Shown here: one piece after another, positions 6,027 through 25,088 of the stretch
Position numbering within the stretch: the first letter of the stretch is position 1
Layout: every line of letters begins with the position of its first letter
Source: Azospirillaceae bacterium
GTDB lineage: Bacteria > Pseudomonadota > Alphaproteobacteria > Azospirillales > Azospirillaceae
Direction of reading: 5' to 3'
Assembly: GCA_035627915.1 (NCBI GenBank)
Contig: DASPKT010000427.1
Location: 1-63,051 of the forward strand
DNA: 63,051 bases
Translations under genes and position numbers: made by a program
Notes under the pieces: model-generated
Told to the model about the DNA's origin: nothing
Database searches by the model: none
The model's input: only the letters and a program-made list of their open reading frames with translations

Positions 6027-6030
6027 GCGC

Positions 6031-6738
6031 CTAGCGCCGCGCCCGGTCGCGCAGCTGGCGGGCGGCGGCCAGGGTGGCGCGGTGGGCGTCGGTGGCGGCG
6101 GGATCGGCGGCCACCTCCTCCAGCAGGGCCGCCCCGCGCTCCTCCTCCCCGTGCAGGGCCAACGACCAGCCCAGGTTCGCCTTCAGCGTCAGGTCGCCGG
6201 GCGCCGCCTTCAGCCCCTGGTCGAAGGCCGCCAGCGCGCCGGCATGGTCGCCCGCCATGTCGAGCGCCACGGCGAGCCCGTTCAGCGACCGCGCATCTCC
6301 CGGCGCTGCGGCCAACGCCCGGCGGTAGGTGGCGGCGGCGTCGGCGGCGCGCTTCAGCGCCAGCTCCGCCCGCCCGGCGCCGCGCAGCGCCTCCAGGTTC
6401 GCGGGCTCCGCCGACAGCGCCGCCCGGTACGCCTCCAGCGCCGCCTCCGGCGCGCCGCCCTCCCAGGCGATGGCGGCGAGCGCCAGCGGCGCGGCGGCGA
6501 GGTCGGGGCGCAGCGCCGCCGCCCGGCGGTAGAGCGCCGCGGCGCTGGCGGCGTCGCCGCCCTGGCGGGTGGCGGCGGCGACCCGCATCAGCTCCTCGTA
6601 CCCCTCCGCCCGCGCGGCCGCCGGGGGCGCGCCGGCCCGGGTGGCGCAGCCCGCCGGCAGGAGCGCGCAGAGCGGCAGGGCCAGCAGCGCCAGCCGCAGG
6701 GCGGGGCCGCGGCGGGAGGGGAGGGAAGGACGGGCCAC
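6031..6738 (-). CDS. TPR-repeat lipoprotein (TadD/CpaI-like by context)
   Basis: Signal peptide with lipobox LLPAGC. It has Ala-rich TPR-like repeats (AALYRRAAALRPD..., EAYRAALSAEP..., ATYRRALAAAP...). It is convergent on tadC. Confidence 0.65.
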   Translation of the reverse strand: MARPSLPSRRGPALRLALLALPLCALLPAGCATRAGAPPAAARAEGYEELMRVAAATRQGGDAASAAALYRRAAALRPDLAAAPLALAAIAWEGGAPEAALEAYRAALSAEPANLEALRGAGRAELALKRAADAAATYRRALAAAPGDARSLNGLAVALDMAGDHAGALAAFDQGLKAAPGDLTLKANLGWSLALHGEEERGAALLEEVAADPAATDAHRATLAAARQLRDRARR

Positions 6739-6901
6739 CGGTCACTCCTGACGGGGTAGGGGGTAACTCATTCTAGCGCGCCGTCCCAAATAATGGTACA
6801 GTCCGGAAAGTAGACGAGCGCAGTAAATTAATAATCCGTAAAATTCTAACAAACTTCACGCGAGCCATGACCCTGCGAACCCTATCCCCGGCAGCGGCGC
6901 G

Positions 6902-7423
6902 ATGACGGCCTCGACGGCCGCCGAGCTGAAGCCGACGCGGGCCGAGCGTCAGCCGGCCGGTCGGCCCTATCACGACCTGGCGCGGCTGATCGAGCGGCTG
7001 CACCGGCGGTTCCTGGACGTGGTCCGGATCGAGCTGGCGCGGCTGGGGGTGGAGGACATCTCCCCGGTCCAGGCCCTGATGATGATGACCATCGGCGGCG
7101 GCGAGGAGCTGTCGGTCCGCGACCTGATCGAGCGCGGGTACTATCTGGGCTCCAACGCCTCCTACAACCTGAAGCACCTGGTGGAGGCCGGCTACGTCGA
7201 CCGCGCCCAATCGCAGCGCGACCGCCGCTCGGCCCGGCTGCGGCTGTCGCCGCGCGGGGCGGAGCTGGTGGCGGAACTGCGCCGGCTGGAGACCAGCCAC
7301 ATCGACAATCTGGTGCGCGGCGACGCCGAGGGGCAGGACCTCGAGGCGACCTACCGCACCCTGCGCCGCCTGGAGCGGACCTGGACAGATGTCATCCGGT
7401 ACGACGCGACGGACTTCGACTGA
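6902..7423 (+). CDS. MarR-family transcriptional regulator
   Basis: 173 aa with a winged-helix core (LSVRDLIERGYYLGSNASYNLKHLVEAGYVDRAQSQRDRRSARLRLSPRG) typical of MarR-like proteins. An AT-rich divergent promoter region lies upstream. Confidence 0.7.
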   Translation: MTASTAAELKPTRAERQPAGRPYHDLARLIERLHRRFLDVVRIELARLGVEDISPVQALMMMTIGGGEELSVRDLIERGYYLGSNASYNLKHLVEAGYVDRAQSQRDRRSARLRLSPRGAELVAELRRLETSHIDNLVRGDAEGQDLEATYRTLRRLERTWTDVIRYDATDFD

Positions 7424-7600
7424 CGCGCGCGGGCGCGGCCGTCCCTTGGGCGCCGCGCCGGATGACAGGAAATTTCCGAGAGTTTTACTTGAATCCCGGC
7501 GATGCGGCGGCCGCCCCGGCCGGGATGCGTATGGGCGGCACATGGGCGGGCTTTGCCCGGCCGCGGGGGGCGGCCGGGGGCTCCTGACCGGAGAAGGGCG

Positions 7601-8776
7601 ATGACCGGCAATTCCCTGAACGCCACCGACGTGGACCGTCTGCTGATCGACCGCTCCGCCGAGGCGCGGATCGAGACCATGACCAAGGTCGTGCGCGACC
7701 TGCAGGCGAACCGGCTGGAGGGACGCGAGGCGGAGCTCGCCCGCGACGTCATCTGCCGCTTCGCCCGCGACGCCGAGGCGGCGGTGCGCGAGGCGGTGGC
7801 CTGGCAGATCCACAACAGCCCGCTGCTGTCCGACGACCTCGCCCGGCGGCTCGCCAGCGACGTCGGCAAGGTGGCCTTCCCCGTGCTGCGCCACGCCCGC
7901 ACCTTCGCCGACGACTTCCTCCTGGAGGTCATCGGCCAGCGCGACGCGGAGAAGCAGGTCGCCATCGCCGGCCGCGACGGCGTCTCGCCCAAGGTGGCCG
8001 ACGCCATCGTGGAGAGCGCCAACCTGTCGGCCATCGGCACGCTGCTGCGCAACGAGACCGCCGACATCCAGGCGCCGACGCTGGAGAAGGTGGCCGACCG
8101 CTACGGCGACGTGCCCTTCGTCGCCGAGCCGCTGGCCGCCCGCCCGCAGCTGCCCATCACCGTGGTGGAGAAGCTGATCCACCAGGTTTCGGAGGAGCTG
8201 CGCCAGACGCTGGCGGAGCGCTACCGCCTGGCCCCCGCCGTGGTGGCGGAGCTGATCGGGCGGGGGCGCGAGGCCGCGACCATGCTGATGCTGCAGCCGC
8301 TGGCCAAGCGCTCCACCGACGTGGAGCTGCTGGCCCGCCACCTGCACCTGAACGGCCGCCTGACCGCGTCGCTGCTGTTCCGCGCGCTGTGCGCCGGCGA
8401 CGTCGGCCTGTTCGTGGCCGGCATCGCGGTGCGCGCCGGCATCGCCCCGGACAACGCCCGCACCCTGCTGTTCGACGACGGCGAGCGGGCGCTGAAGGCC
8501 GTCTTCGACAAGGCCCGCATCTCCACCCTGCTGCTGCCGCCCTTCCAGTCGGCCCTGGGGGTGGTGAAGGAGACCGGCTACGACGGCGACGAGGCGCGCC
8601 GCCGCGCCTTCCAGACCACCGTGCTCGCCCGCGTCTACGCCGAGTGCGGCCACATCGAGGAGCGCGCCGTCGACGACCTCCTGATGCAGCTCTTCGACCA
8701 GAAGAGCGAGGAGATGATCGACCAGGCCATGGACCTCGCCGGCATGCCCTTCCTGCCGATCCGCGGGAGGGCGTGA
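7601..8776 (+). CDS. DUF2336 domain-containing protein
   Basis: ATG at 7601 (MTGNSLNATDVDRLL...) within track ORF 7502..8776. The product is helical-repeat in character and resembles alphaproteobacterial DUF2336 proteins. The family assignment is from memory. Confidence 0.55.
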   Translation: MTGNSLNATDVDRLLIDRSAEARIETMTKVVRDLQANRLEGREAELARDVICRFARDAEAAVREAVAWQIHNSPLLSDDLARRLASDVGKVAFPVLRHARTFADDFLLEVIGQRDAEKQVAIAGRDGVSPKVADAIVESANLSAIGTLLRNETADIQAPTLEKVADRYGDVPFVAEPLAARPQLPITVVEKLIHQVSEELRQTLAERYRLAPAVVAELIGRGREAATMLMLQPLAKRSTDVELLARHLHLNGRLTASLLFRALCAGDVGLFVAGIAVRAGIAPDNARTLLFDDGERALKAVFDKARISTLLLPPFQSALGVVKETGYDGDEARRRAFQTTVLARVYAECGHIEERAVDDLLMQLFDQKSEEMIDQAMDLAGMPFLPIRGRA

Positions 8777-9224: not shown

Positions 9225-10124
9225 ATGACCCTCGACGCCGTCGCCCGCATCCGCCGCTTCAACCGCGCCGTCACCCTGGAGGTGGGGGCGCTCGACGAGT
9301 CCTTCCTCGGCCGGGGCCGTCCGCTGGGCGCGGCCCGGGTGCTGAACGCGGTCGGCCGGGGAAAGAACGACGTCGCCGCCCTGCGTGCCTGCCTGAAGCT
9401 CGATTCCGGCCTCGCGAGCAGGCTGCTGCGGAGCCTGGAGGAGGAAGGGCTGGTCGTCACCGAGCCCCATGCCGACGACGCACGGCGGCGGGTCGTGCGG
9501 CTGACCGCGGCGGGCGAGGCGGAGTTCCGGGTCTATGAGGAGCTGTCCGACGCGCGCGCGGCGGCGCTGCTGGGCCGGTGCAGGGACGCCGACGCGGTGC
9601 TGGCGGCCATGGACCTGATCGCCGCCGTCCTGGAATCCGACCGGATCGCCGTCACTGAGGTCGATCCCGCCGGCCCGGAGGCCCGGTTCTGCCTGGGACG
9701 CTATTACGCCGAGCTGGACGAGCGGTTCGAGGAGGGCTTCCAGGTGGGCCTCTCCCGCGATCCCGACCTGGACGACATGCGGCGCCCCCGCGGCACCTTT
9801 CTGGTGGCCCTGTCGGAAGGCATGCCCTTGGGCTGCGTGGGCCTGAAGCGGTCCGGTGAGCGGCTGGCGGAGATCAAGCGGCTCTGGGTCGACCGGACGG
9901 TCCGCGGCCTCGACCTGGGGCGCCGCCTCGCCCGGACGGCGGAGCAGGTGGCGCGGGAACTGGGCATCGCGACGCTGCGTCTCGACACCAACCGCGCCCT
10001 GACCGACGCCATCGCCATGTACCGGCGATGGGGTTGGACCGAGATCGACCGGTTCAACGACGATCCCTACGCCGACTATTTCTTCGAGAAGCACATCGCC
10101 GACGCGGACAGCGCCGGGCCTTGA
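9225..10124 (+). CDS. Bifunctional MarR-type HTH / GNAT N-acetyltransferase fusion protein
   Basis: N-terminal MarR-like winged helix (LRACLKLDSGLASRLLRSLEEEGLVV...RRRVVRLTAAG). C-terminal GNAT core (EIKRLWVDRTVRGLDLGRRLARTAEQVARELG...LRLDT). Confidence 0.75.
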   Translation: MTLDAVARIRRFNRAVTLEVGALDESFLGRGRPLGAARVLNAVGRGKNDVAALRACLKLDSGLASRLLRSLEEEGLVVTEPHADDARRRVVRLTAAGEAEFRVYEELSDARAAALLGRCRDADAVLAAMDLIAAVLESDRIAVTEVDPAGPEARFCLGRYYAELDERFEEGFQVGLSRDPDLDDMRRPRGTFLVALSEGMPLGCVGLKRSGERLAEIKRLWVDRTVRGLDLGRRLARTAEQVARELGIATLRLDTNRALTDAIAMYRRWGWTEIDRFNDDPYADYFFEKHIADADSAGP

Positions 10125-10232: not shown

Positions 10233-10508
10233 GTCCCGGGCTACCACCCGCCCGAAGGGGGCACCCCGCCCGCTTCGCGCCTGCACCACTTGGGCACCAT
10301 CTACATAGGAACAAGGCCGGCGGGGCGCCGTTTGTCCAGTGCATCCGGCCGTCGCCGACGGTCTGCCGCTGGTGAGGGCGGCTGGGCGTCGGAATTCCCC
10401 TCCGGCGGCCGGATGCGCGGCCGGCCTCGGTGGCGGCCGCCCCTCCACCTTCCGGTGCCGGGCTTCCGCGGGGGCCTGCCCGGGGTCTCGGGTCGGGAGC
10501 CTGGTGAA

Positions 10509-11594
10509 TTGGCTGAGCGGAAAGTCCGGGTCGCGCTGGTCGGTGTCGGCAACTGCGCCTCGTCCCTGGTGCAGGGGATCGAATACTACCGCAGGGCCGG
10601 CGACAACGACGCCGTCCCCGGCCTGATGAACGTCCGGCTGGGCGGCTACCATGTCGGCGACGTGGAGATTTCCTGCGCCTTCGACGTGAACCGCAACAAG
10701 GTCGGCCGCGACGTGGCCGAGGCGATCCTGGCGCCGCCCAACAACACCAAGCGCTTCGCCGAGGTGCCGCCGCTGGGCGTGACGGTCCGGCGCGGGCCGA
10801 CGCTGGACGGGCTGGGCAGCTACCTGCGCCAGTCGGTGCCGGAGTCCGAGCTGCCCGTCGCCGACGTGCCCAAGGTGCTGCGCGACACCGGCACCGACGT
10901 CGTCGTCTCCTACCTGCCGGTCGGCTCGCAGAAGGCGACCGAGTTCTATGTCGAGGCGGCGCTGAAGGCGCGCTGCGGATTCGTCAACTGCATCCCGGTC
11001 TTCATCGCGTCCCGCCCCGAATGGCGCCGCCGCTTCGAGGAGGCGGGGCTGCCCATCATCGGCGACGACATCAAGTCCCAGGTCGGCGCCACCATCGTGC
11101 ACCGGGTTCTGGCCAACCTGTTCCGCGAGCGGGGCGTGCGGCTGGACCACACCTACCAGCTGAACTTCGGCGGCAACAGCGACTTCCAGAACATGCTGGA
11201 GCGCGAGCGGCTGGAGTCCAAGAAGATCAGCAAGACCAACGCGGTGACCAGCCAGATGGACGTGCCGCTGTCGAACGAGGACGCGCATGTCGGGCCCAGC
11301 GACTACGTGCCCTGGCTGACCGACCGCAAATGGGCCTACATCCGCATGGAGGGGACCTCCTTCGGCGACGTGCCGCTGAACGTGGAGCTGAAGCTGGAGG
11401 TCTGGGACAGCCCGAACTCCGCCGGCGTGGTCATCGACGCGGTGCGCTGCGTGAAGCTGGCGCTGGACCGCGGCGTGTCGGGCGCGCTGGAGGGGCCCAG
11501 CAGCTACTTCATGAAGTCGCCGCCGCGCCAGTTCACCGACGCGGAGGCCCGCCAGCACGCCCGCGGGTTCATCGACGGCGACCACGGCCTATGA
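10509..11594 (+). CDS. ino1: Inositol-3-phosphate synthase (myo-inositol-1-phosphate synthase)
   Basis: Has the hallmark N-terminus [23 protein letters not shown] and conserved downstream blocks ([31 protein letters not shown]). The track ORF starts at 10290, but homologues begin just before the KVRV block. TTG at 10509 with GGGAG 9 nt upstream is the proposed start. Confidence 0.85.
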
Positions 11595-12187
11595 CCCTGT
11601 TCCTGCTGGTCCGCCACGGCAGCCACGACCTGCTGGGCGGAACCCTGGCGGGGCGCATGGAGGGCGTCTCCCTCAGTGCCGCCGGCCGGGCGGAGGCGGA
11701 GCGCCTCGCCGGCCGGCTCCTGCGTGAGCGCCCGTCGCGCCTGCTGACCAGCCCCGTCCAGCGCTGCCGGGAAACCGCCGCCATCCTCGGCCGCCGGCTT
11801 GACCTGCCTGTCGAGGCGGAGCCCGACCTGATCGAGATCGACTTCGGCGCCTGGACCGGGCGGCGGTTCGACGAGCTGTCGGGCGACCCCCTCTGGGCGC
11901 GCTGGAACTCCTTCCGGTCGGGGGCGCGTACCCCGGGCGGGGAGGGGATGGGACAGGTTCAGCTCAGGATGGTTGGGCTGCTGGACCGGCTGCGCCAGGA
12001 CGATCCCGACGGGACCGTCGCCCTGGTGGGACATGCCGATCCGCTGCGCGCCGCGCTCTGCTGGGCGCTCGGCATGCCGCTCGACCTGCTGCTCCGGCTG
12101 GAGGTCGCGCCCGCGTCGCTGAGCCGGCTGGAGCTGACGGAGTGGGGGCCGCGCGTGCTGTCGCTGAACGAGGTGGGGGCGGAATGA
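11591..12187 (+). CDS. Histidine phosphatase (phosphoglycerate-mutase-like) family protein
   Basis: Starts [10 protein letters not shown], which contains the RHG catalytic motif, and has a later ...GHADPLRA His motif. An ATGA overlap joins it to the synthase stop. Confidence 0.8.
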
Positions 12188-12236
12188 GAGCGAGCGTGGC
12201 GGCTGCGGGGCCGGCCTTCCCGGGGAGGGCGGCGGC

Positions 12237-13361
12237 ATGAAGATCGTCGTCTTCGGCCTGACGGTCTCCTCCTCCTGGGGCAACGGGCACGCCACGCTGT
12301 GGCGCGGCCTGATCGCGGCGCTGGCGCGGCGCGGCTGCCGGGTGGTGTTCCTGGAGAAGGACGTCCCCTGGTACGCGGGCGCCCGCGACCTCTGGGACCT
12401 GCCGGGCGGCGAGCTGGTGCTCTACCGGGACTGGGAGACGGTGCTGCCCGAGGCGCGCCGGCACCTGGCCGACGCCGACGTGGCGATGGTCACCTCCTAC
12501 TGCCCCGACGGGATCGAGGCGACCGAGCTGGTGCTGGAGGAGGGGCGCGGTCTGCGCACCTTCTACGACCTGGACACGCCGGTCACGCTGGCGACCCTGG
12601 CGGCGGGGGAGGGGCTGGCCTACATCGGCCCGCGCGGCTTGGGCGGCTTCGACTTGGTGCTGAGCTACACCGGCGGGGCGGCGCTGGAGGGGCTGCGCGA
12701 CCGGCTCGGCGCGCGGGCCGTCGTGCCGCTCTACGGCCACGTCGATCCCGCCGTGCACCGCCCGGTGCCGCCGGTGGAGCACTACCGGGCCGACCTCTCC
12801 TACCTCGGCACCTACGCCGCCGACCGGCAGGCCATGCTGGAGCGGCTGTTCGTGGAACCGGCCCGCGTGCTGACCGGCCGGCGCTTCCTGATCGGCGGGG
12901 CGCAGTACCCGGCCGACTTCCCCTGGACGCCCAACATCCATTTCGTGCGCCACCTGCCGCCGGCGGAGCACCCGGCCTTCTTCTCCTCCGGCCGGCTGAC
13001 GGTGAACGTGACACGGCGGGCGATGGCCGAGATGGGCTGGTGCCCCAGCGGCCGGCTGTTCGAGGCGGCGGCCTGCGGCTGCCCGGTCCTGTCGGACTGG
13101 TGGGAGGGGCTGGACCGGTTCTTCACGCCCGGCCGCGAGATCCTGGTCGCCCGCACCACGGCGGAGGCGGTCGCCGCCATCGACCATTCCGACGAGGGGC
13201 TGCGGCGCGTGGGTGAGGCCGCGCGCGAGCGGGTGCTGGCCGAGCACACGGCCGACCGGCGGGCGGACGAGCTGCTGGCCGCGCTCTCCGCCGCCCACCG
13301 GCCGGCGGCGGCGCGCCCCGGCGGGGATGCGGACCGCCGCGACGGCGTGCAGGGGGGCTGA
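12237..13361 (+). CDS. Glycosyltransferase, CgeB-like (GT-B fold)
   Basis: 374 aa. The N-terminus is MKIVVFGLTVSSSWGNGHATLWRGL. The C-terminal segment SGRLFEAAACGCPVLSDWWEGL is typical of the GT1/CgeB-like family. Confidence 0.7.
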   Translation: MKIVVFGLTVSSSWGNGHATLWRGLIAALARRGCRVVFLEKDVPWYAGARDLWDLPGGELVLYRDWETVLPEARRHLADADVAMVTSYCPDGIEATELVLEEGRGLRTFYDLDTPVTLATLAAGEGLAYIGPRGLGGFDLVLSYTGGAALEGLRDRLGARAVVPLYGHVDPAVHRPVPPVEHYRADLSYLGTYAADRQAMLERLFVEPARVLTGRRFLIGGAQYPADFPWTPNIHFVRHLPPAEHPAFFSSGRLTVNVTRRAMAEMGWCPSGRLFEAAACGCPVLSDWWEGLDRFFTPGREILVARTTAEAVAAIDHSDEGLRRVGEAARERVLAEHTADRRADELLAALSAAHRPAAARPGGDADRRDGVQGG

Positions 13362-13365
13362 TCCC

Positions 13366-14145
13366 ATGTGGGGCATCGTCCCGGCCGCGGGCAGCGGCAC
13401 CCGCATCCAGCCGCTCGCCTTCTCCAAGGAGCTGCTGCCCGTCGGCAGCCGCCTCGACGGCGACACAGAGCGCCCGCGCGCGGTCAGCGAGTACCTGATC
13501 GAGCGCATGGTGCAGGGCGGGGCGGACAAGGTCTGCTTCGTCATCTCCCCCGGCAAGTCGGACATCCTGGAATATTACGGCGGCAGCTACGGCACCGCCT
13601 CCATCGCCTATGTGGTGCAGCCGAACCCGGGCGGGCTGTGCGACGCCATCTTCCGCGCCCTGCCGCTGATCCCGCCGGACGAGCCGGTCATCGTCGGACT
13701 GCCCGACACCGTGTGGTTTCCCGACCACGCGCTGCGGGCGCTGCCCGACGACCGCCTGTCCTTCCTGCTGTTCCCGGTGGAACGGCCGGAGTTCTTCGAC
13801 GCGGTCGTGACGGACGGCGAGGGCACGGTGCGGGAGATCCAGGTGAAGCGGAAGGACGCCTCCACCCGCTGGATCTGGGGCGCCTTCAAGATGCCGGGCG
13901 CCGTCCTGCACGAGTTGCACGCGCTGTGGCGCGGGCGCGACCGGCAGGACGAGTACATAGGCACGCTGGTCAACGCCTGGATCGCGCGGGGCGGCCGCGC
14001 CGTCGGCATCCGCGCCGGCACGGCCTATGTCGACGTCGGCACCGTCCACGGCTACCGCGCCGCCATCGGGCTGCTGAGCGGCCAGTCGGGCAACCCCGGC
14101 CTGCCGTTCCCCGAGACCCACTCCCAGACCATGAGGACGCGCTGA
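13366..14145 (+). CDS. Sugar-phosphate (or inositol-phosphate) nucleotidyltransferase
   Basis: MWGIVPAAGSGTRIQPLAFSKELLPV is the NTP_transferase signature G-x-G-T-R. It starts 5 nt after the preceding stop, and its own stop overlaps the next start. Confidence 0.75.
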   Translation: MWGIVPAAGSGTRIQPLAFSKELLPVGSRLDGDTERPRAVSEYLIERMVQGGADKVCFVISPGKSDILEYYGGSYGTASIAYVVQPNPGGLCDAIFRALPLIPPDEPVIVGLPDTVWFPDHALRALPDDRLSFLLFPVERPEFFDAVVTDGEGTVREIQVKRKDASTRWIWGAFKMPGAVLHELHALWRGRDRQDEYIGTLVNAWIARGGRAVGIRAGTAYVDVGTVHGYRAAIGLLSGQSGNPGLPFPETHSQTMRTR

Positions 14146-14918
14146 TGGACACGCACAAGGCCGGCGGCGGCCTGCCGCCGGAGGAGATCCGCCGGCGTGC
14201 GGAGGCGCTGGGTCCCTGGTTCCACAACCTCGACCTCAAGGGCGTGCGCACGGCGCCGGACCATTTCCTGGGCGACTATCCCGCGGTGAAGTTCCGCAAC
14301 TTCGCCCACGCGCTGCCGGCCGACCTCACGGGCAGGTCGGTGCTCGATATCGGCTGCAACGCCGGCTTCTACTCCTTGGAGATGAAGCGGCGCGGGGCCG
14401 AGCGGGTGGTCGGCATCGACTTCGACGACCAGTACCTGGACCAGGCCCGCTTCGCCGCCGGGGTGCTGGGCTTCGACATCGAGTTCCGGAAGCTGTCCGT
14501 CTACGACGTGGGCGCGCTGGGCGAGCGGTTCGACGTCGTGATCTTCATGGGCGTGCTCTACCACCTGCGCCATCCCCTGCTGGCGCTCGACCTCATCCAC
14601 GAGCATGTCTGCGGCGACCTGCTGGTGTTCCAGAGCATGCAGCGGGGTAGCCCCGAGGTGGAGCCCCTGGAGAGTGACTATCCGTTCTGGACGACCGATG
14701 TCTTCGACCGTCCCGGATATCCCAGGCTGCATTTCGTCGAGCACGAATACGCCCACGACTGGACGAACTGGTGGGTTCCCAACAACGCCTGTGCCGAGGC
14801 CATGCTGCGCAGCGCCGGGTTCCGGATCGTCGACCATCCCGAGCAGGAGGTCTTCATCTGCCGGCGTGCCGAACCGCCCTACGGCGCCGGCGCCGTCTAT
14901 CCCGCCCGCCATCCCTGA
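14145..14918 (+). CDS. Class I SAM-dependent methyltransferase (TIGR04290-like by recollection)
   Basis: SAM motif I is VLDIGCNAGFYS, followed by post-I RVVGIDFD and FDVVIFMGVLYHLRHP. Confidence 0.8.
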   Translation: MDTHKAGGGLPPEEIRRRAEALGPWFHNLDLKGVRTAPDHFLGDYPAVKFRNFAHALPADLTGRSVLDIGCNAGFYSLEMKRRGAERVVGIDFDDQYLDQARFAAGVLGFDIEFRKLSVYDVGALGERFDVVIFMGVLYHLRHPLLALDLIHEHVCGDLLVFQSMQRGSPEVEPLESDYPFWTTDVFDRPGYPRLHFVEHEYAHDWTNWWVPNNACAEAMLRSAGFRIVDHPEQEVFICRRAEPPYGAGAVYPARHP

Positions 14919-14967
14919 AGTCCCAGCAACCCGACGCAAAGCCGAACGGCACGAAGAGGGGAGACCG

Positions 14968-15903
14968 ATGATCGAAGCGGTAATGTTGTGGAACGAGCCC
15001 AACAACAAGTCCCACTGGGACCTGGAGCTCGACCCCGACTGGGCGGCCTTCGCCGAGATGACCTCCATCACCGCAAAGGCGCTGAAGGAGGCGTGCCCGC
15101 AGGTGCCGCGCGTGCTGGGCGGCATCTCCCCCATCGACCCCAACTTCATCCGCAACCTGGACCGCAAGGGCGCGCTGGACGACATGGACGTGGTGGCGGT
15201 CCACGGCTTCCCGCTGGACTGGAACCACTGGCAGATCAACGAGTGGCCGGACAAGCTGGAGGAGATCCGCCAGGTCACCGGCAAGGAGCCGTGGGTGTCG
15301 GAGGTCGGCATCTCCACCTTCGGCGCCGAGGAGGTGCAGGAGTTCGGGCTGAAGCGCTCCGCCGAGCTGCTGGTCGGCCGGGTCCCGCGCATCCACTGGT
15401 ACAGCCTGTTCGACCTGCCCAAGGCCTGGCCCGCCACCACCCGCCACCGCGAGGCGGAGGGCTCCTCCTACTACCGGCACTTCTACATGGGGCTGGTGCG
15501 CGAGGACATGACGGAGAAGCTGGCTTACCGGCACTTCGCCGGCCTGACGCCGGAGGTCGGGCTCTGCCAGTGGTTCCACTACCAGGACCACCGGCTGGAC
15601 GAGGCGGTGCGGCGGATGAAGGAGCTGGGCGTCACCTACCTGCGCACCGGGCTCTCCTGGGCCGACTACTACCGCCCCGACGCGCTCGCCTGGTTCGACC
15701 GGCAGATGGAGGCGCTGAAGGACTTCCAGGTCACCGTCACCTACTGCTTCACGCCGGAGCACAAGGGGGTGCAGCCGCACTACACCAGCCCGCCCAAGGA
15801 CCCCGCGGAGTTCGCGGAGTTCTGCGTGGAGATGACCCGCCGCTACGCCGGCAGCGCCGCCCCCGCGGGCACGGCGCCGCTCGCGTCCACCGAGGCGGCG
15901 TGA
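14968..15903 (+). CDS. Glycoside-hydrolase-like TIM-barrel protein (clan GH-A-like)
   Basis: ATG at 14968 follows GAGGGGAG. A WNEPNN acid/base-type motif sits at residues 8-13, and WVSEVG is nucleophile-like. The C-terminal third resembles the beginning of a GH-A barrel (GVTYLRTGLSW). Confidence 0.5.
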   Translation: MIEAVMLWNEPNNKSHWDLELDPDWAAFAEMTSITAKALKEACPQVPRVLGGISPIDPNFIRNLDRKGALDDMDVVAVHGFPLDWNHWQINEWPDKLEEIRQVTGKEPWVSEVGISTFGAEEVQEFGLKRSAELLVGRVPRIHWYSLFDLPKAWPATTRHREAEGSSYYRHFYMGLVREDMTEKLAYRHFAGLTPEVGLCQWFHYQDHRLDEAVRRMKELGVTYLRTGLSWADYYRPDALAWFDRQMEALKDFQVTVTYCFTPEHKGVQPHYTSPPKDPAEFAEFCVEMTRRYAGSAAPAGTAPLASTEAA

Positions 15904-16787
15904 TCGCCGGGGGGACCTCCCGGCCCGGCGGACGGGCGGCCCGCAACCCGCCCGCCGCCGCCTTCCTGCGCGACCTGCTGCCGTCCGGCCCGCCGGTGCT
16001 GGACGCGCGGCGGGTCGCCATCGTCGTGGCGCATCCCGACGACGAGACGGTGGGGCTGGGGGCGCAGCTGCCGCGGCTGGCGGGCGTGCGGGTGGTGCAC
16101 GTCACCGACGGGGCGCCGGCCGACCTGGTGGACGCCCGCGCCCACGGGTTCCAGACGCGCGAGGACTATGCCGGCGCCCGCCGGGACGAGCTGGAGGCCG
16201 CCATGGCGGTGGCCGGCATCCCGCCCATGCGCGTCGTCGGCATAGGCATCGCCGACCAGGAGGCGAGCTTCGTCATGGCCGGGCTGGCGCGCCGGCTGGC
16301 CGAGCTGTTCGACCAGGCCGACGTTGGCGTGGTGCTGACGCATCCCTACGAGGGCGGCCACCCCGACCACGACGCCACCTGCTTCGCCGTGCACGCGGCC
16401 TCCGCCCTGATGCGGGAGGCCGGGCTGGCGGCGCCGGAGATCCTGGAGATGGCGAGCTACCATGCCGGGCCGGACGGCGGCCTCAGGACCGGCGCCTTCC
16501 TGCCGGCCGCCGGCGTCGTGGAGGAGGTGCTGCCCCTCGACCTCGACCAGCAGGCCCTGAAGCGCCGGCTTTTCGAGTGCCACGCGACCCAGGCCGGCAT
16601 GCTGGAGAACTTCCCGCTGGAGATGGAGCGGGTGCGCACGGCCCCGGACTACGACTTCCTCTCGCCCCCGCATACGGGCCGCCTCTACTACGAGAACTTC
16701 TCCTGGGGGGTGGACGGCGCCCGCTGGCGCGACGAGGCCGCCGCCGCCATCGCCCAGCTGCAGCTGGAGGCGCCGCCGTGGCGCTGA
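15900..16787 (+). CDS. PIG-L family deacetylase (LmbE/MshB/BshB-like)
   Basis: Has the motifs VAHPDDETVG and GGHPDHD. The GTG start at 15900 overlaps the preceding stop (GTGA). Confidence 0.8.
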   Translation: MIAGGTSRPGGRAARNPPAAAFLRDLLPSGPPVLDARRVAIVVAHPDDETVGLGAQLPRLAGVRVVHVTDGAPADLVDARAHGFQTREDYAGARRDELEAAMAVAGIPPMRVVGIGIADQEASFVMAGLARRLAELFDQADVGVVLTHPYEGGHPDHDATCFAVHAASALMREAGLAAPEILEMASYHAGPDGGLRTGAFLPAAGVVEEVLPLDLDQQALKRRLFECHATQAGMLENFPLEMERVRTAPDYDFLSPPHTGRLYYENFSWGVDGARWRDEAAAAIAQLQLEAPPWR

Positions 16788-17872
16788 CCGTCCTCGGCGT
16801 CGCCTACCCGCTGGCACCCGTCGGCCAGGGGGCTGTGGGTGGCGCCGAGCAGGTGCTGTCCCACATGGACCGGGCGCTGGTGGCGGCCGGCCACCGCTCC
16901 CTCGTCGTCGCCTGCGAGGGCTCGGAGGTGGCCGGGACCCTGCTGCCGGTGCCGCTGCCCCGGGGCGAGTTGGACGAGGCGGCGAAGCGGGCGGCCCAGG
17001 CCCGCCACGCCGCCGCCATCGCCGACGCGCTCGACCGCTTCCCCGTGGACGTCGTGCACCTGCACGGCATCGACTTCATGGCCTACCTGCCGCCGCCGGG
17101 CGTGCCGGTGCTGGCGACGCTGCACCTGCCGCCGGCCTGGTACCCGGAGGAGACCTGGCGCATCGCGCGGCCGGACACCTGGCTGAACCCGGTGTCGGAC
17201 AGCCAGCGCCGCCGCTGCCCGCCCGTGCCCAACCTGCTGGCGGCGGTCCCGAACGGGGTGCCGGTGGACCGGCTGGACTGGCGCGGGCGCAAGGCCGGCT
17301 TCGCCGCCGCACTCGGGCGGGTCTGCCCGGAGAAGGGGTTCGAGCATGCGGTGGAGGCGGCGGAGCGGGCGGAGGTGCCGCTGCTGCTGGCGGGCCGGGT
17401 CTATCCCTACCGCGCGCACCTCGACTATTTCGACCGGGTACTGCGGCCCCGCCTGTCGCGCCGGGTGCGCTTCCTGGGGCCGCTGGGCTTCACCCCGAAG
17501 CGCCGCCTGATGGGCATGGCGCGCGCCGTCCTGATCCCCAGCCTCTGCGAAGAGACGAGCTCGCTGACCGCCATGGAGGCGGCGGCCTGCGGCACCCCCG
17601 TCGTCGCCTTCCGCCACGGCGCCCTGCCCGAGGTGGTGGAGCACGGGCTGACCGGCTTCGTCGTGGACGACGCGGCCGCCATGGCCGACGCCATCCACGC
17701 CGCCGCGGCGCTCGACCCCGACGCCTGCCGCGCCCGGGCCCGGGCGCGCTTCTCCCTGGACTCCATGGCGGCGCGGTACCTGGAGCTGTACGGAACGCTG
17801 GCCGCCCGCCGGACGCCTTCTCTGCGTGCGGGAGAGGAAGCGGTCCCGCGGCTTCAGGCGCGGGGTGGGTGA
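16778..17872 (+). CDS. Glycosyltransferase family 4 (GT-B, retaining, MshA/BshA-like fold)
   Basis: The GTG start at 16778 overlaps the PIG-L gene end by 10 nt. The E-x7-E region is EETSSLTAMEAAACGTPVVAFRHGALPEVVEHG. Confidence 0.8.
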   Translation: MALTVLGVAYPLAPVGQGAVGGAEQVLSHMDRALVAAGHRSLVVACEGSEVAGTLLPVPLPRGELDEAAKRAAQARHAAAIADALDRFPVDVVHLHGIDFMAYLPPPGVPVLATLHLPPAWYPEETWRIARPDTWLNPVSDSQRRRCPPVPNLLAAVPNGVPVDRLDWRGRKAGFAAALGRVCPEKGFEHAVEAAERAEVPLLLAGRVYPYRAHLDYFDRVLRPRLSRRVRFLGPLGFTPKRRLMGMARAVLIPSLCEETSSLTAMEAAACGTPVVAFRHGALPEVVEHGLTGFVVDDAAAMADAIHAAAALDPDACRARARARFSLDSMAARYLELYGTLAARRTPSLRAGEEAVPRLQARGG

Positions 17873-17879
17873 GGGGGTA

Positions 17880-18839
17880 ATGAGGCTCCCCGCCGGCAAT
17901 GCGGCCACCGTCGGGGGCCTCCCAGCCCTGGCGGCGCTGGAGGCCACCTGGTGGGACCTCTGGCGGCGCGACCCCGGGGCGACGCCCTTCCACAGCCCGG
18001 CCTGGCTGCTGCCCTGGGCCCGGGTCTTCGCGCCGGAAGCGGTCTCGGCCGTCATCGTCGGCGGCCCGGACCGGCTGGACGCCCTGTTCCCGCTGTTCCG
18101 CCACGAGGGCCGACTGCTGCCGCTGGGGGCGGGGATCACCGACCATCTGGGCGGCCTCATCGATCCGACGCTCGGGCCCGGCGCCGCGACCGCCCTGCTT
18201 GCCGCGGCCGGCGCGGCGGGGCTGTCGCTCGACCTGCCGGACATCCGCGGCGCGCTCGCCGGCTGTCCCGCGCCCCCGGGCTGGCGGGAGGAGCGGTGGG
18301 AGGCGGAGCCCTGCCCGGTGCTGGCGCTGCCCGCGGCGCCGTCCCGCCGCCTCGCCCAGAACCTACGCACCGCCCGCAACCGCGCCGCCCGCCTGGGCAC
18401 GCTGGACGCCCGCCGGGTCCGCGGCGCGGAGGTCCTGCCGGCCCTGGACACGCTGGCCACCCTGCACGGCGCCCGCTGGCGGGAGCGCGGCGGGACGGGG
18501 GTGCTGGACGACGCGGCCGTCCGTACCTTCCACCGGCAGGCAGCCCCCTTGCTGGAGGCAGCCGGGCTGCTGCGCCTCTACCGCCTCGACCTCGACGGCC
18601 GTGCCGTCGCCATGCTGTACGGCCTCGCCGCCAAGGGGCGCTTCCACTACTACATCGGCGGCTTCGACCCGGCCTTCCGGGCGATCAGCCCCGGCGCCCT
18701 GCTGCTGTCCCACGCGGTGGAGGAGGCCGCCCGCGAGGGCTGCCGGGAATTCGACTTCCTGCGGGGGAGGGAGGACTACAAATACGCGTGGGGCGCCGCG
18801 GACCGGCCGGGCACGGGGCGGAGGCTTGTGCCGGCGTGA
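17880..18839 (+). CDS. GNAT-fold acyltransferase of the CelD/BcsL (FemAB-like, Acetyltransf_6) type
   Basis: N-terminus ...WWDLWRRDPGATPFHSPAWLLPW. C-terminus LYGLAAKGRFHYYIGGFDPAFRAISPGALLLSHAVEEAAREGCREFDFLRGREDYKYAWGA. Confidence 0.7.
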   Translation: MRLPAGNAATVGGLPALAALEATWWDLWRRDPGATPFHSPAWLLPWARVFAPEAVSAVIVGGPDRLDALFPLFRHEGRLLPLGAGITDHLGGLIDPTLGPGAATALLAAAGAAGLSLDLPDIRGALAGCPAPPGWREERWEAEPCPVLALPAAPSRRLAQNLRTARNRAARLGTLDARRVRGAEVLPALDTLATLHGARWRERGGTGVLDDAAVRTFHRQAAPLLEAAGLLRLYRLDLDGRAVAMLYGLAAKGRFHYYIGGFDPAFRAISPGALLLSHAVEEAAREGCREFDFLRGREDYKYAWGAADRPGTGRRLVPA

Positions 18840-18884: not shown

Positions 18885-19094
18885 ATGCCGACCATTGGAC
18901 GCTTCGGGCCCTATGTGATCCGCTTCTTCAGCAACGAAGGGAGCGAACCCCCGCACGTGCATGTAGATCGCGGCGCCTGCACCGCCAAGATATGGCTGGA
19001 GGACCCGCCGAGGCTGGCGCTCAGCCGGGGCTTCGCGGCGCATGAGGCGAGGATCGTCCTCGCCCTGGTGGCGGAACATCGTGGCAGGTGTTAA
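18885..19094 (+). CDS. DUF4160 domain-containing protein
   Basis: MPTIGRFGPYVIRFFSNEGSEPPHVHV... matches the DUF4160 N-terminal signature (MPTI...F...E..PPH.HV). The stop TAA is at 19092-19094. Confidence 0.65.
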   Translation: MPTIGRFGPYVIRFFSNEGSEPPHVHVDRGACTAKIWLEDPPRLALSRGFAAHEARIVLALVAEHRGRC

Positions 19095-19383: not shown

Positions 19384-19674
19384 ATGCCTGGCAGACCCAT
19401 TTCGGGGGTGGCGATGACTGACCGGGCGATCGTGCATGTCGACGTGACGGACGACTTCGTGACCGTCCGGCTGGACGACGGACGTGTCGTCTCGACGCCG
19501 CTCGCCTGGTATCCCCGGCTCCTGGCGGCGCCGCCCGAGGCGCGGGCGCGGTGCGAGATCGTATCGGCCGGGCTGGGCGTCAGCTGGCCCGACCTCGACG
19601 AGGACCTGTCGCTGGCCGGGATGCTGCGGGGCGAGCCTGCGCGGCGGCGCCCGGGGCACCTCGCCGCGGAATAG
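19384..19674 (+). CDS. DUF2442 domain-containing protein
   Basis: ...VTDDFVTVRLDDGRVVSTPLAWYPRLLAAPPEARARCEIVSAGLGVSWPDLDEDLSLAGML is the DUF2442 pattern (W.P.L..A......N.E....G.G..WP.LDEDL). An alternative start is ATG 19414. Confidence 0.65.
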   Translation: MPGRPISGVAMTDRAIVHVDVTDDFVTVRLDDGRVVSTPLAWYPRLLAAPPEARARCEIVSAGLGVSWPDLDEDLSLAGMLRGEPARRRPGHLAAE

Positions 19675-19680
19675 CTCCCG

Positions 19681-21738
19681 TCACGCCGCCCCGCCCTCCG
19701 CCGTCCCCACCCAGCAGCGCAGCGCCTCCGCCACGCTCCAGGCCTGGGCGATGCAGCCGCGGGGCGTGTAGGGGGGCTCGGCGTCGAAGATCTCGCTGAG
19801 GGTGCCGATGCCAGCCTCGCCCAGGTGGGCGGCCAGGCCCTCCAGCAGGCGCCGCGCGCCGGCCCGGTCCTCCGGGTGCAGCTTCAGCCGGGCGTCCAGG
19901 TAGGGCCCGATCAGCCAGCCCCAGACGGTGCCCTGGTGGTAGGCGGCGTCGCGGGAGCGGAGGTCGCCGAAGTAGCGCCCGCGGTAGTCGGGATGGCCGG
20001 GCGCCAGCGAGCGCAGGCCGACCGGGGTCAGCAGCCGCTCCTCCACCGCCCGCAGGACGGGCTCCCACCGCTCCCGGTCCAGCACCGGATGGTCTAGCGA
20101 GATCGCCAGCACCTGGTTCGGCCGGCAGGCCGGGTCGTCGCCGCCGCCCTCGGCGTCCACCACGTCGTGGAGATGGCCGCCTTCGGCATACCAGAAGCGA
20201 TCGTTGAAGCTGGCGCGGGCGCGGTCGGCCATGGCGGCCCAGGGCTCCGCCTCCGCCCCGCGGCCCTCTTCCGCCAGCCAGCCGGCCAGCAGCCGCAGCG
20301 CGTTGTGCCACAGCGCGTTGATCTCCACCGCCTTGCCGCGGCGGGGCGTGACCACCCAGCCCTCCACCTTGGCGTCCATCCAGGTCAGCTGGTAGCCCTC
20401 CGCCCCCTGGCGCAGCAGCCCGTCGGCCGGGTCCATGCCGATGCCGAAGCGGGTTCCCCGCCGGTGGTGCCCGGCGATGTCCAGCAGGACGGGCAGCAGC
20501 CGGCGCAGCGTGGCGCGGTCGCCGGTGGCGGCGACGTAGCGGTGGACGGCGTGGAAGAACCAGAGGGTGGCGTCGGCAGTGTGGTAGAGCCCCTCGTTGC
20601 GCCCCTCCGGGAACAGGTTGGGGATCAGCCCGTCGCGGACGTGCCCGGCGAAGGCGCGCAGGATCCACCGGGCCTCCGCGGCGCGGCCGGTGCAGAGCGT
20701 CAGCCCCTCCAGCGCGATCATGGTGTCGCGGCCCCAGTCGGTGAACCAGTGGTAGCCGGCCACCACGCTGCGCACCTCGTCCCCGCGGGCCTGCGCGCGG
20801 GCTTGGTCGGCGCTGCGCCCCGCCGGGCTCATCAGGAAGGCGTCGGCGGCCAGCACCAGCTCCGCCGCCGGGCCGGCGCGCGCCGCCGGCGGGGCGAGGG
20901 AGAGGAGGTGGCGCCGCCGCTCCCGCTCCAGCGCCAGCGCTTCCGCCGGGGGCAGCGCATCCAGCACGGGCCAGGGCTCGGTGCCGGCCACCAGGGCCGC
21001 GGGGCGGTCCGGCGCCAGCGGCACCTCGAAGCCGGCGCCGCTCCACAGCATCCCCCGGCTGTCGTAGCCGCGCTCCGCCTCCTGCCGGTACAGCACGTCC
21101 ATCGCCCCGGTCCCCTCGACCACCAGTCGGGCGGCGGCCCCGTGGACCCGGAGGCGCAGGGGCGGCAGGGCCGGGTCGCCCGTGATCTCGCAGCGCCCGT
21201 CCTCCATGCCGACCCGGTAGGCGGCGGGGGCCGCGGCCACGGGTGCCTCCAGCGCGCGGAAGCCGACCGCCGGGCGCAGCAGCAGGGTCGCCGGCGCGCT
21301 GCCCGGCAGCAGGCGGTAATGGGCCTGCACCGCGTTCTGCCGGTAGGGCATGAACAGGCGCTTCTCCAGCAGCACCCCGCCGGCGGCGAAGCGCCAGACG
21401 GGGAGGCCCAGCTCCAGCGCGAAGGCATCCAGGCAGCCGGTCCCGGCGTCGTCCGGCTGCTCCAGCGGGACCAGCGGCAGCTCCCGCCCGTCCGCCAGCC
21501 GAACCGCCTCGCGCAGGTGGCTCAGCATCACCATGCGGCCCAGCGGCGCCGGCAGGGCCGCGACCAGCAGGCCGTGGTAGCGGCGGGTCAGCGCGCCCGC
21601 GGCCGTGGCGGAGGCGTAGCCGCCCAGCCCGTTGGCGACCAGCCACTCCGCCGCCGGCCCGGCAGCCGCCAGCGCCGCGCGGTCGAGCGACCGCACGATC
21701 CCGTCCTCCTCCTCCGGCCGCCTGCGCTGGTCGTCCAT
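19681..21738 (-). CDS. Amylo-alpha-1,6-glucosidase / glycogen-debranching-enzyme-like protein (GDE_N plus GDE_C)
   Basis: 685 aa with blocks GYHWFTDWGRDTMIAL, LTWMDAKVEGWVVTPRRGKAVEINALWHNAL, AYHQGTVWGWLIGPY and PRGCIAQAWSVAE. Confidence 0.85.
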   Translation of the reverse strand: MDDQRRRPEEEDGIVRSLDRAALAAAGPAAEWLVANGLGGYASATAAGALTRRYHGLLVAALPAPLGRMVMLSHLREAVRLADGRELPLVPLEQPDDAGTGCLDAFALELGLPVWRFAAGGVLLEKRLFMPYRQNAVQAHYRLLPGSAPATLLLRPAVGFRALEAPVAAAPAAYRVGMEDGRCEITGDPALPPLRLRVHGAAARLVVEGTGAMDVLYRQEAERGYDSRGMLWSGAGFEVPLAPDRPAALVAGTEPWPVLDALPPAEALALERERRRHLLSLAPPAARAGPAAELVLAADAFLMSPAGRSADQARAQARGDEVRSVVAGYHWFTDWGRDTMIALEGLTLCTGRAAEARWILRAFAGHVRDGLIPNLFPEGRNEGLYHTADATLWFFHAVHRYVAATGDRATLRRLLPVLLDIAGHHRRGTRFGIGMDPADGLLRQGAEGYQLTWMDAKVEGWVVTPRRGKAVEINALWHNALRLLAGWLAEEGRGAEAEPWAAMADRARASFNDRFWYAEGGHLHDVVDAEGGGDDPACRPNQVLAISLDHPVLDRERWEPVLRAVEERLLTPVGLRSLAPGHPDYRGRYFGDLRSRDAAYHQGTVWGWLIGPYLDARLKLHPEDRAGARRLLEGLAAHLGEAGIGTLSEIFDAEPPYTPRGCIAQAWSVAEALRCWVGTAEGGAA

Positions 21739-24739: not shown

Positions 24740-25088
24740 GGCCCACTCCTTTCAGGTATTCGTCGAACCGCCGGTCGGCGACGGCGATCAGGGTGCGGTA
24801 GAACCGCCGTTGCGAGACGCCGCTCTTGTCTCCGGCAACGAGAAGGATCGCGGCGCGTTCCGGATCGAAGGCGAACGCCACGCGCCACGCGCCGTCGCCG
24901 GCGGCGAAGCGCAACTCCTTCATGTTGCGGTGACGCGAGCCCGCCAGGGTGTCGGCATAGGGACGCCCGAGGGTCGGTCCCTCGATGGCGAGCAGCCTTG
25001 CGTGGGCCAGCAGGGCGACACGCACTGCCGGCGGGAGGTTCCGGACCTCATCCTCGAACTCGTCGTGCAGCCGCACCGTCCACGCCAT
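24723..25088 (-). CDS. RelE/HigB-superfamily toxin (Gp49-like)
   Basis: 121 aa with ...MKELRFAAGDGAWRVAFAFDPERAAILLVAGDKSG... The toxin-first gene order matches HigBA modules. Confidence 0.7.
   Translation of the reverse strand: MAWTVRLHDEFEDEVRNLPPAVRVALLAHARLLAIEGPTLGRPYADTLAGSRHRNMKELRFAAGDGAWRVAFAFDPERAAILLVAGDKSGVSQRRFYRTLIAVADRRFDEYLKGVGHGTHA

Follow-up and report, generated by a model that had tools for sequence, protein, structure and literature searches.

Introduction

What does an alphaproteobacterium build with nine closely packed genes, the first of which encodes an inositol-3-phosphate synthase, and under which conditions does it build it? The question is raised by an operon on a 63,051-nucleotide (nt) stretch of DNA from an Azospirillaceae bacterium (GenBank assembly GCA_035627915.1, contig DASPKT010000427.1, forward strand), referred to below, at its full length, as the window. 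The nine genes are called g1 to g9 in the order of transcription, and they encode, respectively, myo-inositol-3-phosphate synthase (Ino1), a histidine phosphatase, a CgeB-like glycosyltransferase (GT), a nucleotidyltransferase, an S-adenosylmethionine (SAM) methyltransferase, a glycoside hydrolase (GH)-like barrel protein, a PIG-L deacetylase, a GT4 glycosyltransferase, and a CelD/Fem-like GNAT protein. The original prediction, made from the sequence of the window, had seen in them an enzyme set resembling that of mycothiol and bacillithiol biosynthesis. Here, we propose that the genes form a single operon of the general stress response (GSR; the PhyR-NepR-sigma-EcfG pathway) that directs the synthesis of a cytoplasmic methylated myo-inositol glycoside, most likely a stress or dormancy (desiccation) protectant. 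We give this reading a probability of roughly 55%.

Results

Nine intact genes form one transcription unit candidate

The G+C content of the window is ~73%, and raw lists of its open reading frames (ORFs) are therefore crowded with shadow ORFs. A plot of G+C at third codon positions (GC3) by frame revealed nine successive plus-strand coding phases between ~10.3 and 18.9 kb, and inspection of start codons placed nine intact genes at positions 10509-18839 of the plus strand, joined either by overlaps of 1-10 nt or by gaps of 4-49 nt. The tight coupling of co-directional genes that had been predicted is thus fully apparent. A metagenome contig that encodes an identical g5 protein was gene-called independently, and the product lengths agree for g2 to g9 (198, 374, 259, 257, 311, 295, 364, and 319 amino acids). 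Catalytic motifs are intact in g2 (RHG), g4 (GxGTR), g5 (the SAM motif), g6 (NEP and SEVG), g7 (AHPDDE and HPDH), and g8 (E-x7-E). All nine products are soluble, there being no transmembrane segment and no signal peptide in any of them. Searches against Pfam and NCBIfam agreed with each of the nine family assignments made originally, and the Gram-negative background assumed for this inositol-phosphate-synthase operon is that of an alphaproteobacterium. An Rfam scan of the whole window returned no RNA family. A scan for sigma-70 promoters and terminators was uninformative, with a single terminator-like site, located inside g3, which is below the chance expectation.

Core enzymes point to a probable methylated inositol glycoside

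The g1 protein matched the Pfam family Inos-1-P_synth at 124 bits (the cut-off is 27) and, over its full length, the TIGR03450 model at 539 bits (E of 4e-162), which is under the equivalog cut-off of 638; its median identity to orthologues is 74%. The g2 protein scored 161 bits with His_Phos_1, and its top NCBIfam model, the MSMEG_4193 family, was matched at 162 bits, a value under the cut-off of that model. The g3 protein belongs to the Glyco_trans_1_2 (CgeB-like) family of Pfam (142 bits). Its AlphaFold model has a GT-B fold (pLDDT, the predicted local distance difference test, of 90.6), and a Foldseek search with the model returned retaining GT4 enzymes with soluble acceptors at template modelling (TM) scores of 0.64-0.70. 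The top match was the methylmannose-polysaccharide mannosyltransferase ManT (7qsg), with a marginal lead over a dozen other GT4 structures; sucrose-phosphate synthase, BshA, MshA, BGluT, TeGSS, GlgM, and TreT were also among the matches. An apparent g3 fusion of 524 amino acids (P0122) proved to be two neighbouring GT paralogues that had been called as a single gene, and not a fusion of a phosphatase with a GT.

The g5 protein covers positions 2-226 of the 226-position TIGR04290 methyltransferase model and scores 395.4 bits against a cut-off of 300, as the original prediction, which named this model, had anticipated. Among solved structures, the sugar O-methyltransferase EvdMO1 is closest to it (2e-13); ToxA, CmoB and, more distantly, WbdD were also found, while the same search of solved structures returned no mycobacterial methyltransferase.

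One of the alternatives concerns the nucleotidyltransferase g4. The operon could, in principle, produce a phosphodiester solute similar to di-myo-inositol-phosphate by way of CDP-inositol, with g4 as the cytidylyltransferase and g3 as a TagF-like phosphotransferase; the CDP-inositol-forming enzyme IPCT does have the NTP_transferase fold that Pfam assigns to g4, and Ino1 is the sole enzyme in the operon that forms a sugar phosphate. A profile of the g4 family, however, matched RmlA over its full length (3e-13), and also GalU, and produced no IPCT match at E<=1. The earlier suggestion of an IPCT-type function for g4 is therefore not favoured. Neither a CDP-alcohol phosphatidyltransferase nor any membrane protein is encoded in the operon, and glycosidic chemistry is implied by the conservation of the GH protein and by the GT4-like nature of g3. 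We consider a solute of this kind very improbable.

The families and folds of the core proteins are consistent with the following sequence of reactions. Ino1 would convert glucose-6-phosphate to inositol-3-phosphate, the RmlA-like g4 would make an NDP-hexose, and the CgeB-like retaining GT-B enzyme g3 would transfer the hexose to inositol-3-phosphate or to free inositol. The histidine phosphatase g2 would then take off the phosphate, as happens when a transferase is paired with a phosphatase in the synthesis of sucrose, trehalose, glucosylglycerate, and mycothiol. A hydroxyl group would be O-methylated by g5, and the glycoside might be trimmed, transglycosylated, or recycled by g6.

Such a scheme would resemble known pathways in which a GT and a phosphatase cooperate to make a solute (SPS/SPP, the sucrose-phosphate synthase and phosphatase pair; OtsA/OtsB; GpgS/GpgP; mannosylglycerate synthesis). 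The g3 fold matches sucrose-phosphate synthase and TreT, the operon phosphatase is translationally coupled, and expression is probably stress-controlled. In mycobacteria, GpgP is itself a histidine-phosphatase-family enzyme, and it is used in making the primer of methylglucose lipopolysaccharide (MGLP). Unlike in these pathways, the acceptor here would be inositol-3-phosphate, the product would be methylated and, in this genome, extended, and a conserved glycosidase lies within the operon.

The core of the operon is widely conserved

Relatives of g5 are present in at least 569 species, as determined by a scan of one genome per species, and in metagenomes the proteins of the gene cluster sort into at least 8000 sequence clusters at 90% identity. 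The best 80 loci were compared by tblastn and by clustering of ORFs into families; since loci from related species are phylogenetically non-independent, the counts given here and below are not counts of independent events. Most of these loci are from Alphaproteobacteria (Roseomonas, Microvirga, Methylobacterium, Inquilinus, Sphingomonas, Bradyrhizobium, Enterovirga, Azospirillum, and Aerophototrophica), and the other hosts include Sorangium, Acidobacteriota, and Armatimonadota. The genes for the methyltransferase g5 and the GH barrel g6 are side by side in 77 of the 80 loci, while g1 and g2 are found in 61. The g3 orthologue and g4 co-vary: loci that lack g4 hold only a g3 paralogue with 47-48% identity. 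Genes g1 to g6 are present in the same order in 27 loci, and in 12 loci, which represent at least eight genera, the full set of nine is found with order and strand preserved. The arrangement is not a matter of chance, and the operon is shared by many Alphaproteobacteria of the soil. The conservation of context that the original prediction had proposed as a check is thus observed, with g7, g8, and g9 being optional. On the basis of these synteny counts, the core consists of Ino1, the histidine phosphatase, one or more CgeB-like GTs, the methyltransferase, and the GH barrel, with the nucleotidyltransferase as an optional member. No transporter, exporter, or lipid-carrier transferase family is conserved across the 80 loci.

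The conserved combination of GT, methyltransferase, and hydrolase calls to mind the clusters for polymethylated polysaccharides (PMPS) of mycobacteria, i.e., that for methylmannose polysaccharide (MMP; manT, meT1, meT3, and mmpH) and that for MGLP, which likewise encode a cytoplasmic GT, a SAM methyltransferase, and a hydrolase. According to an alternative reading, the product would be a methylated oligo- or polysaccharide built inside the cell on an inositol primer, a Gram-negative analogue of MGLP and MMP, with g6 as the chain-processing hydrolase. The manT-meT-mmpH cluster is mirrored by the set of enzymes found here, ManT is the top fold match of g3, there are related loci with multiple GT paralogues, and all proteins are cytoplasmic. 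Yet ManT is barely ahead of the other GT4 structures, the search of solved structures with g5 yielded EvdMO1, ToxA, CmoB, and WbdD rather than a mycobacterial methyltransferase, and in the window an inositol module is accompanied by just two GTs. We regard a polysaccharide of this type as unlikely.

The related loci differ from the window in several other respects. Many genomes contain extra modules that are missing from the window, namely, a pair of oxidoreductases of the medium-chain dehydrogenase/reductase (MDR) and Gfo-Idh-MocA families, an epimerase of the short-chain dehydrogenase/reductase (SDR) family, and a second methyltransferase. Three to seven CgeB-like GT paralogues and a GT4 enzyme lie beside the Ino1-methyltransferase-GH core in loci L002, L013, L021, L025, L060, L088, and others, and such arrays are sometimes accompanied by a B12-binding radical SAM enzyme. 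The 63-kb window holds no GT-paralogue array, no second GT4 enzyme, no MDR/Gfo pair, and no second methyltransferase. A protein of ~624 amino acids with no Pfam match (family 11) repeatedly adjoins the methyltransferase-GH pair (L004, L059, L064, L022, and others) in Armatimonadota, Acidobacteriota, Sorangium, and some Alphaproteobacteria. In some Methylorubrum strains (L087 and L089, contigs related to Methylobacterium extorquens), the methyltransferase-GH pair alone is left, in L089 beside an integrase-like gene; the isolated pair suggests partial deletion of the cluster in these strains.

A general stress promoter motif precedes the operon

Promoters of the sigma-EcfG type have the consensus GAAC-N16,17-C/GGTT (PMC4814048). 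In the 384-nt gap 5' of g1, ~177 nt ahead of its TTG start, there is a match to the strict pattern GGAAC-N16-CGTT on the sense strand. The strict pattern occurs twice in the 63 kb, with 0.78 matches expected; the other occurrence, at 24837-24861 of the minus strand, is inside or upstream of a small gene pair of the Gp49-like/HTH (helix-turn-helix; HigB/HigA-like) type. The sense strand of the 300 nt upstream of each gene was searched with a strict and a loose pattern in the related loci, random 300-nt windows of the same loci serving as the background. Upstream of Ino1, the strict motif was present in 26 of 61 loci, compared to 0.5% of random windows, and the loose one in 33 of 61, compared to 2.1%. 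The motif is rare upstream of g3, g4, and g5 (no more than 4 of 51-81 loci, even with the loose pattern), and neither pattern was matched upstream of g6 to g9. The spacer sequences of the motif vary among genera, and outside of the motif the regions upstream of Ino1 are unalignable across genera; since the surrounding sequence does not align, conservation is limited to the motif itself. Loci of the Microvirga type have a second, divergent EcfG-type motif that faces the GT-paralogue array.

Published expression data are available for two relatives of the operon. In Rhodospirillum centenum SW, all nine genes recur with their order unchanged, the products being 54-83% identical to those of the window, and the flanks also match (MarR and DUF2336 genes upstream, PALP and coxB/coxA genes downstream). 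RNA sequencing of R. centenum cysts by Dong et al. (PMC4340629) reported induction of RC1_0768-0770 (log2 fold change of 2.34) and RC1_0771-0773 (1.96), an increase of roughly 4-5 fold, at 96 h only, i.e., late in encystment. In Methylobacterium extorquens AM1, META1_0137-0143 correspond to a GH barrel, a TIGR04290 methyltransferase, a histidine phosphatase, Ino1, an SDR, and two CgeB-like GTs; the correspondence was established from exact gene lengths and overlaps, which agree with those of locus L088. After ethanol stress, both the ecfG1 ecfG2 double mutant and the sextuple ecfG mutant express these genes at levels lower by a factor of 2.0-2.9 (PMC4814048, S2 Table). Neither study recognised the cluster as a unit (PMC4340629, PMC4814048). 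The operon is thus apparently switched on by the GSR.

The timing of induction in R. centenum bears on another reading, in which the CgeB-like GTs would make a polysaccharide with inositol in it, for export to the resting-cell envelope as a cyst coat, a spore coat, or another surface glycan. Late induction during encystment would fit this reading, as would the membership of g3 in the CgeB (spore maturation) family, the arrays of three to seven GT paralogues at other loci, and the presence of cyst and myxospore formers among the hosts. On the other hand, transmembrane segments and signal peptides are lacking in all nine proteins, and the 80 loci share no conserved flippase, ABC (ATP-binding cassette) exporter, Wzy/Wzx, or polyprenyl-phosphate transferase. 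Most of the host genera are not known as cyst formers. We therefore consider a coat glycan rather unlikely as the product.

g6 is a circularly permuted GH-A barrel

The g6 protein has a weak Pfam match to Glyco_hydro_cc and is labelled in databases as "beta-xylosidase". It begins with the NEP acid/base motif (residues 9-11), which is normally located at the end of strand 4, and has its nucleophile, E112, in the motif SEVG, while the N-terminal strands of PslG match the C-terminal third of g6. When g6 was re-joined in silico, with residues 195-297 placed ahead of residues 1-194, a single contiguous alignment to PslG residues 26-181 that spans the junction was obtained, and the E value in a phmmer search of the PDB improved from 3.7e-3 to 3.1e-7. 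The Pfam match of the artificially re-joined protein to Glyco_hydro_cc was no longer than before. The structural model of g6 is a TIM barrel (pLDDT of 82) in which five strands are followed by three. The best fold matches in Foldseek were GH5, GH10, and GH2 enzymes; the alignments were partial or had low TM scores, which is what a permuted barrel should give.

Relatives with the canonical order, 35-42% identical to g6, were found in an exhaustive search. BLASTP with one of them, P0407, aligned g6 in swapped segments: residues 5-185 of g6 with 134-311 of P0407 (41% identity), and residues 194-285 with 25-119 (43%). Residues N9-E10, E112, R226, H79, and W144 are invariant in 25 homologues, and H265 is nearly so. 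We conclude, from the alignments and the model, that g6 is a circularly permuted barrel of clan GH-A, in which the predicted strands b4-b8 precede b1-b3 and the catalytic residues are all kept; the Asn-Glu plus Glu arrangement of the clan is present, and the canonical b1-b8 strand order is not. With GH39/PslG-type hydrolases of the clan, g6 shares the TIM barrel and the Arg, His, Asn-Glu, His, Glu, Trp signature, and it differs from them in being permuted, short (311 amino acids), cytoplasmic, and part of a biosynthetic operon.

Some canonical-order relatives (in locus L092, at 5241-7253, and neighbours; also P0470 and P0496) are fused to a domain of the NAD-dependent NDP-sugar epimerase/dehydratase type. 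The genes for these fusions are clustered with those for a further SDR, an MDR dehydrogenase, a GT4 enzyme, and three CgeB-like GTs, and Ino1 and the methyltransferase are missing there. The fusions and the GT neighbours link the g6 barrel with sugar biosynthesis and not with polysaccharide degradation.

An optional trio of genes resembles mycothiol synthesis at the family level

The three distal genes are found less often than the core: g7 is present in 29, g8 in 33, and g9 in 24 of 81 loci. The PIG-L/GT4/GNAT trio is thus an optional accessory module. PIG-L enzymes act on conjugates of N-acetylglucosamine (GlcNAc). The g7 protein matches the PIG-L family of Pfam at 67 bits, with diacetylchitobiose deacetylase as the nearest solved structure (2.5e-5). 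The g9 protein scores 122 bits with PF13480 (Acetyltransf_6), and no solved relative of it was found by sequence. The g8 protein has Pfam matches to Glyco_trans_1_4, Glycos_transf_1, and Glyco_transf_4. Its nearest solved relatives are glucosylsucrose synthase (TeGSS, 7fg9; 1e-37 over the full length, although at 133 bits the similarity is moderate) and the UDP-glucose:tetrahydrobiopterin glucosyltransferase BGluT (3e-28). Both belong to GT4 and attach sugars to small molecules in solution (PMC9909042). The adjoining PIG-L gene suggests that the donor of g8 is an N-acetylhexosamine rather than glucose. In this genome, the trio would act on the core product, g8 adding an N-acetylhexosamine, g7 removing the N-acetyl group, and g9 re-acylating the amine.

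Could the operon then make a cofactor of the mycothiol/bacillithiol kind, as was originally thought possible? In such a pathway, g8 would transfer GlcNAc to inositol-phosphate, g2 would dephosphorylate the product, g7 would deacetylate it, and g9, as an aminoacyl- or acyltransferase, would act on glucosaminyl-inositol. The resemblance stands at the family level. Like mycothiol biosynthesis in Actinobacteria, the operon starts from an actinobacterial-type Ino1 (TIGR03450, 539 bits), it brings together in one pathway a phosphatase, a GNAT protein, a PIG-L deacetylase, and a transferase of the GT4 fold, and all enzymes are cytoplasmic. The resemblance does not extend to the specific enzymes: g8 scored 47 bits with the MshA model TIGR03449, in its C-terminal part only (cut-off, 462), and 47 bits with BshA (274), while g7 scored 21 bits with the MshB model TIGR03445 (224) and 41 bits with BshB2 (195). 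MshA structures were matched by g8 at just 2e-10, over a partial stretch, far behind glucosylsucrose synthase and BGluT. There is no ligase domain that could represent a Cys ligase in the nine operon proteins or in 20 flanking ORFs, and no BshC-like protein is present. Moreover, the deacetylase, GT4, and GNAT genes are dispensable in most relatives, and a mycothiol-like pathway leaves unexplained the methyltransferase-GH pair and the CgeB-like GTs, which are present throughout; with the nucleotidyltransferase, these add up to four activities that mycothiol synthesis does not use. A cofactor of this type is quite improbable. The parts of the original prediction according to which the product is not mycothiol itself and may be a soluble, methylated inositol glycoconjugate with a de-N-acetylated and re-acylated aminosugar fared better: the first is supported by the missing ligase and the low MshA and MshB scores, and the second is plausible.

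Genes flanking the operon

The features of the region are listed in Table 1. The MarR and DUF2336 genes upstream of the operon are syntenic with those of R. centenum, while the gene for a MarR-GNAT fusion that separates them from the operon in the window is missing there. The R. centenum orthologue of the DUF2336 gene product, RC1_0767, is 72% identical and was induced at all four time points of encystment (log2 fold change of 1.5-3.4). Directly after g9, the window contains a toxin-antitoxin-like DUF4160/DUF2442 pair; at this position, R. centenum and Aerophototrophica have a 267-amino-acid ORF with no Pfam match. Further downstream, a gene convergent to the operon encodes a glycoside hydrolase with GDE_N and GDE_C domains, of which locus L001 has a 58% identical copy beside the cluster; the enzyme could serve in the turnover of the operon product or of glycogen. 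A comparison of window positions 22.8-51 kb with locus L085 showed that a stretch of ~25 kb, which in the window separates the cluster from the PALP/coxB/coxA genes, is not present at this place in R. centenum. It holds genes for two MacB-type ABC permeases, an HlyD-family adaptor, an ABC ATPase, histidine kinases, and Mfd.

Table 1. Operon genes, promoter motif, and flanking features in the 63,051-nt window (aa, amino acids).
Feature	Position	Strand	Remarks
g1, myo-inositol-3-phosphate synthase (Ino1), 361 aa	10509..11594	+	TTG start after GGGAG
g1, alternative starts	10455, 10413	+	start-codon inspection
g2, histidine-phosphatase superfamily (branch 1), 198 aa	11591..12187	+	ATGA overlap with g1
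g3, CgeB-like GT-B (GT4-fold) glycosyltransferase, 374 aa	12237..13361	+	49-nt gap after g2
g4, RmlA/GalU-like sugar-1-phosphate nucleotidyltransferase, 259 aa	13366..14145	+	4-nt gap after g3
g5, TIGR04290-family SAM methyltransferase, 257 aa	14145..14918	+	1-nt overlap with g4
g6, circularly permuted clan GH-A (beta/alpha)8 glycosidase-like protein, 311 aa	14968..15903	+	49-nt gap after g5
g7, PIG-L family de-N-acetylase, 295 aa	15900..16787	+	4-nt overlap with g6
g8, GT4 glycosyltransferase, 364 aa	16778..17872	+	10-nt overlap with g7
g9, Acetyltransf_6 (CelD/Fem-like GNAT) acyltransferase, 319 aa	17880..18839	+	7-nt gap after g8
g9, alternative GTG starts	17865, 17826	+	
sigma-EcfG-type (general stress response) promoter motif, GGAAC-N16-CGTT	10308..10332	+	pattern match
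MarR gene	6902-7423		upstream of operon
DUF2336 gene	7502-8776		upstream of operon
MarR-GNAT fusion gene	9225-10124		between DUF2336 gene and operon
DUF4160/DUF2442 pair, toxin-antitoxin-like	18885-19094 and 19384-19674		directly after g9
GDE_N/GDE_C glycoside hydrolase with MGH1-like (mannosylglycerate-hydrolase-like) domain	19681-21738	-	convergent to operon

Discussion

The motif conserved upstream of Ino1, the expression data from two relatives, and the composition of the conserved core led us to the view that this operon is a target of the GSR and makes a cytoplasmic methylated myo-inositol glycoside. Several observations weigh against it. The order of the steps and the substrate of every enzyme were assigned from family or fold only, and no product has been observed; the g2 phosphatase could simply yield free inositol. 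The motif at 10308-10332 is a pattern match and not a mapped transcription start. The differentially expressed genes of R. centenum do not include the accessory genes RC1_0774-0776 (PMC4340629). No EcfG motif was seen in the examined part of the M. extorquens operon, and the fold changes in the ecfG mutants, which are modest, could for this reason be indirect. The three to seven additional CgeB-like GTs and the GT4 enzyme of many genomes suggest that the product is not a simple solute but a longer chain, an oligo- or polysaccharide. Finally, the CgeB name and the late-cyst timing fit a coat glycan as well.

A full-text literature search found no paper on the cluster or its product. The enzyme families and the logic of stress-induced glycosides were already known; the combination of genes, its breadth, its placement under sigma-EcfG, and the permuted glycosidase were not found in the literature searched. 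Tentatively, the product could represent an undescribed class of stress metabolites, either an O-methylated glycosyl-myo-inositol or an inositol-primed methylated oligosaccharide similar to PMPS. Horizontal transfer would have carried it to Myxococcota, Acidobacteriota, and Armatimonadota, and its processing would fall to the permuted GH-A enzyme. We consider this possible and, at present, doubtful.

For annotation, the results mean that proteins named "beta-xylosidase", "tRNA mo5U34 methyltransferase", and "spore maturation protein CgeB" belong to one pathway, and they document circular permutation within clan GH-A glycosidases. The alphaproteobacterial GSR protects cells against desiccation, salt, heat, and oxidants; to our knowledge, which of its target genes give protection is largely unsettled. 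The cluster described here is a widespread, probable target of the GSR with a clear biosynthetic logic. Identification of its product could reveal a new protectant of soil-crust, rhizosphere, and leaf-surface bacteria and of cyst formers, and such a protectant would bear on the survival of inoculants.

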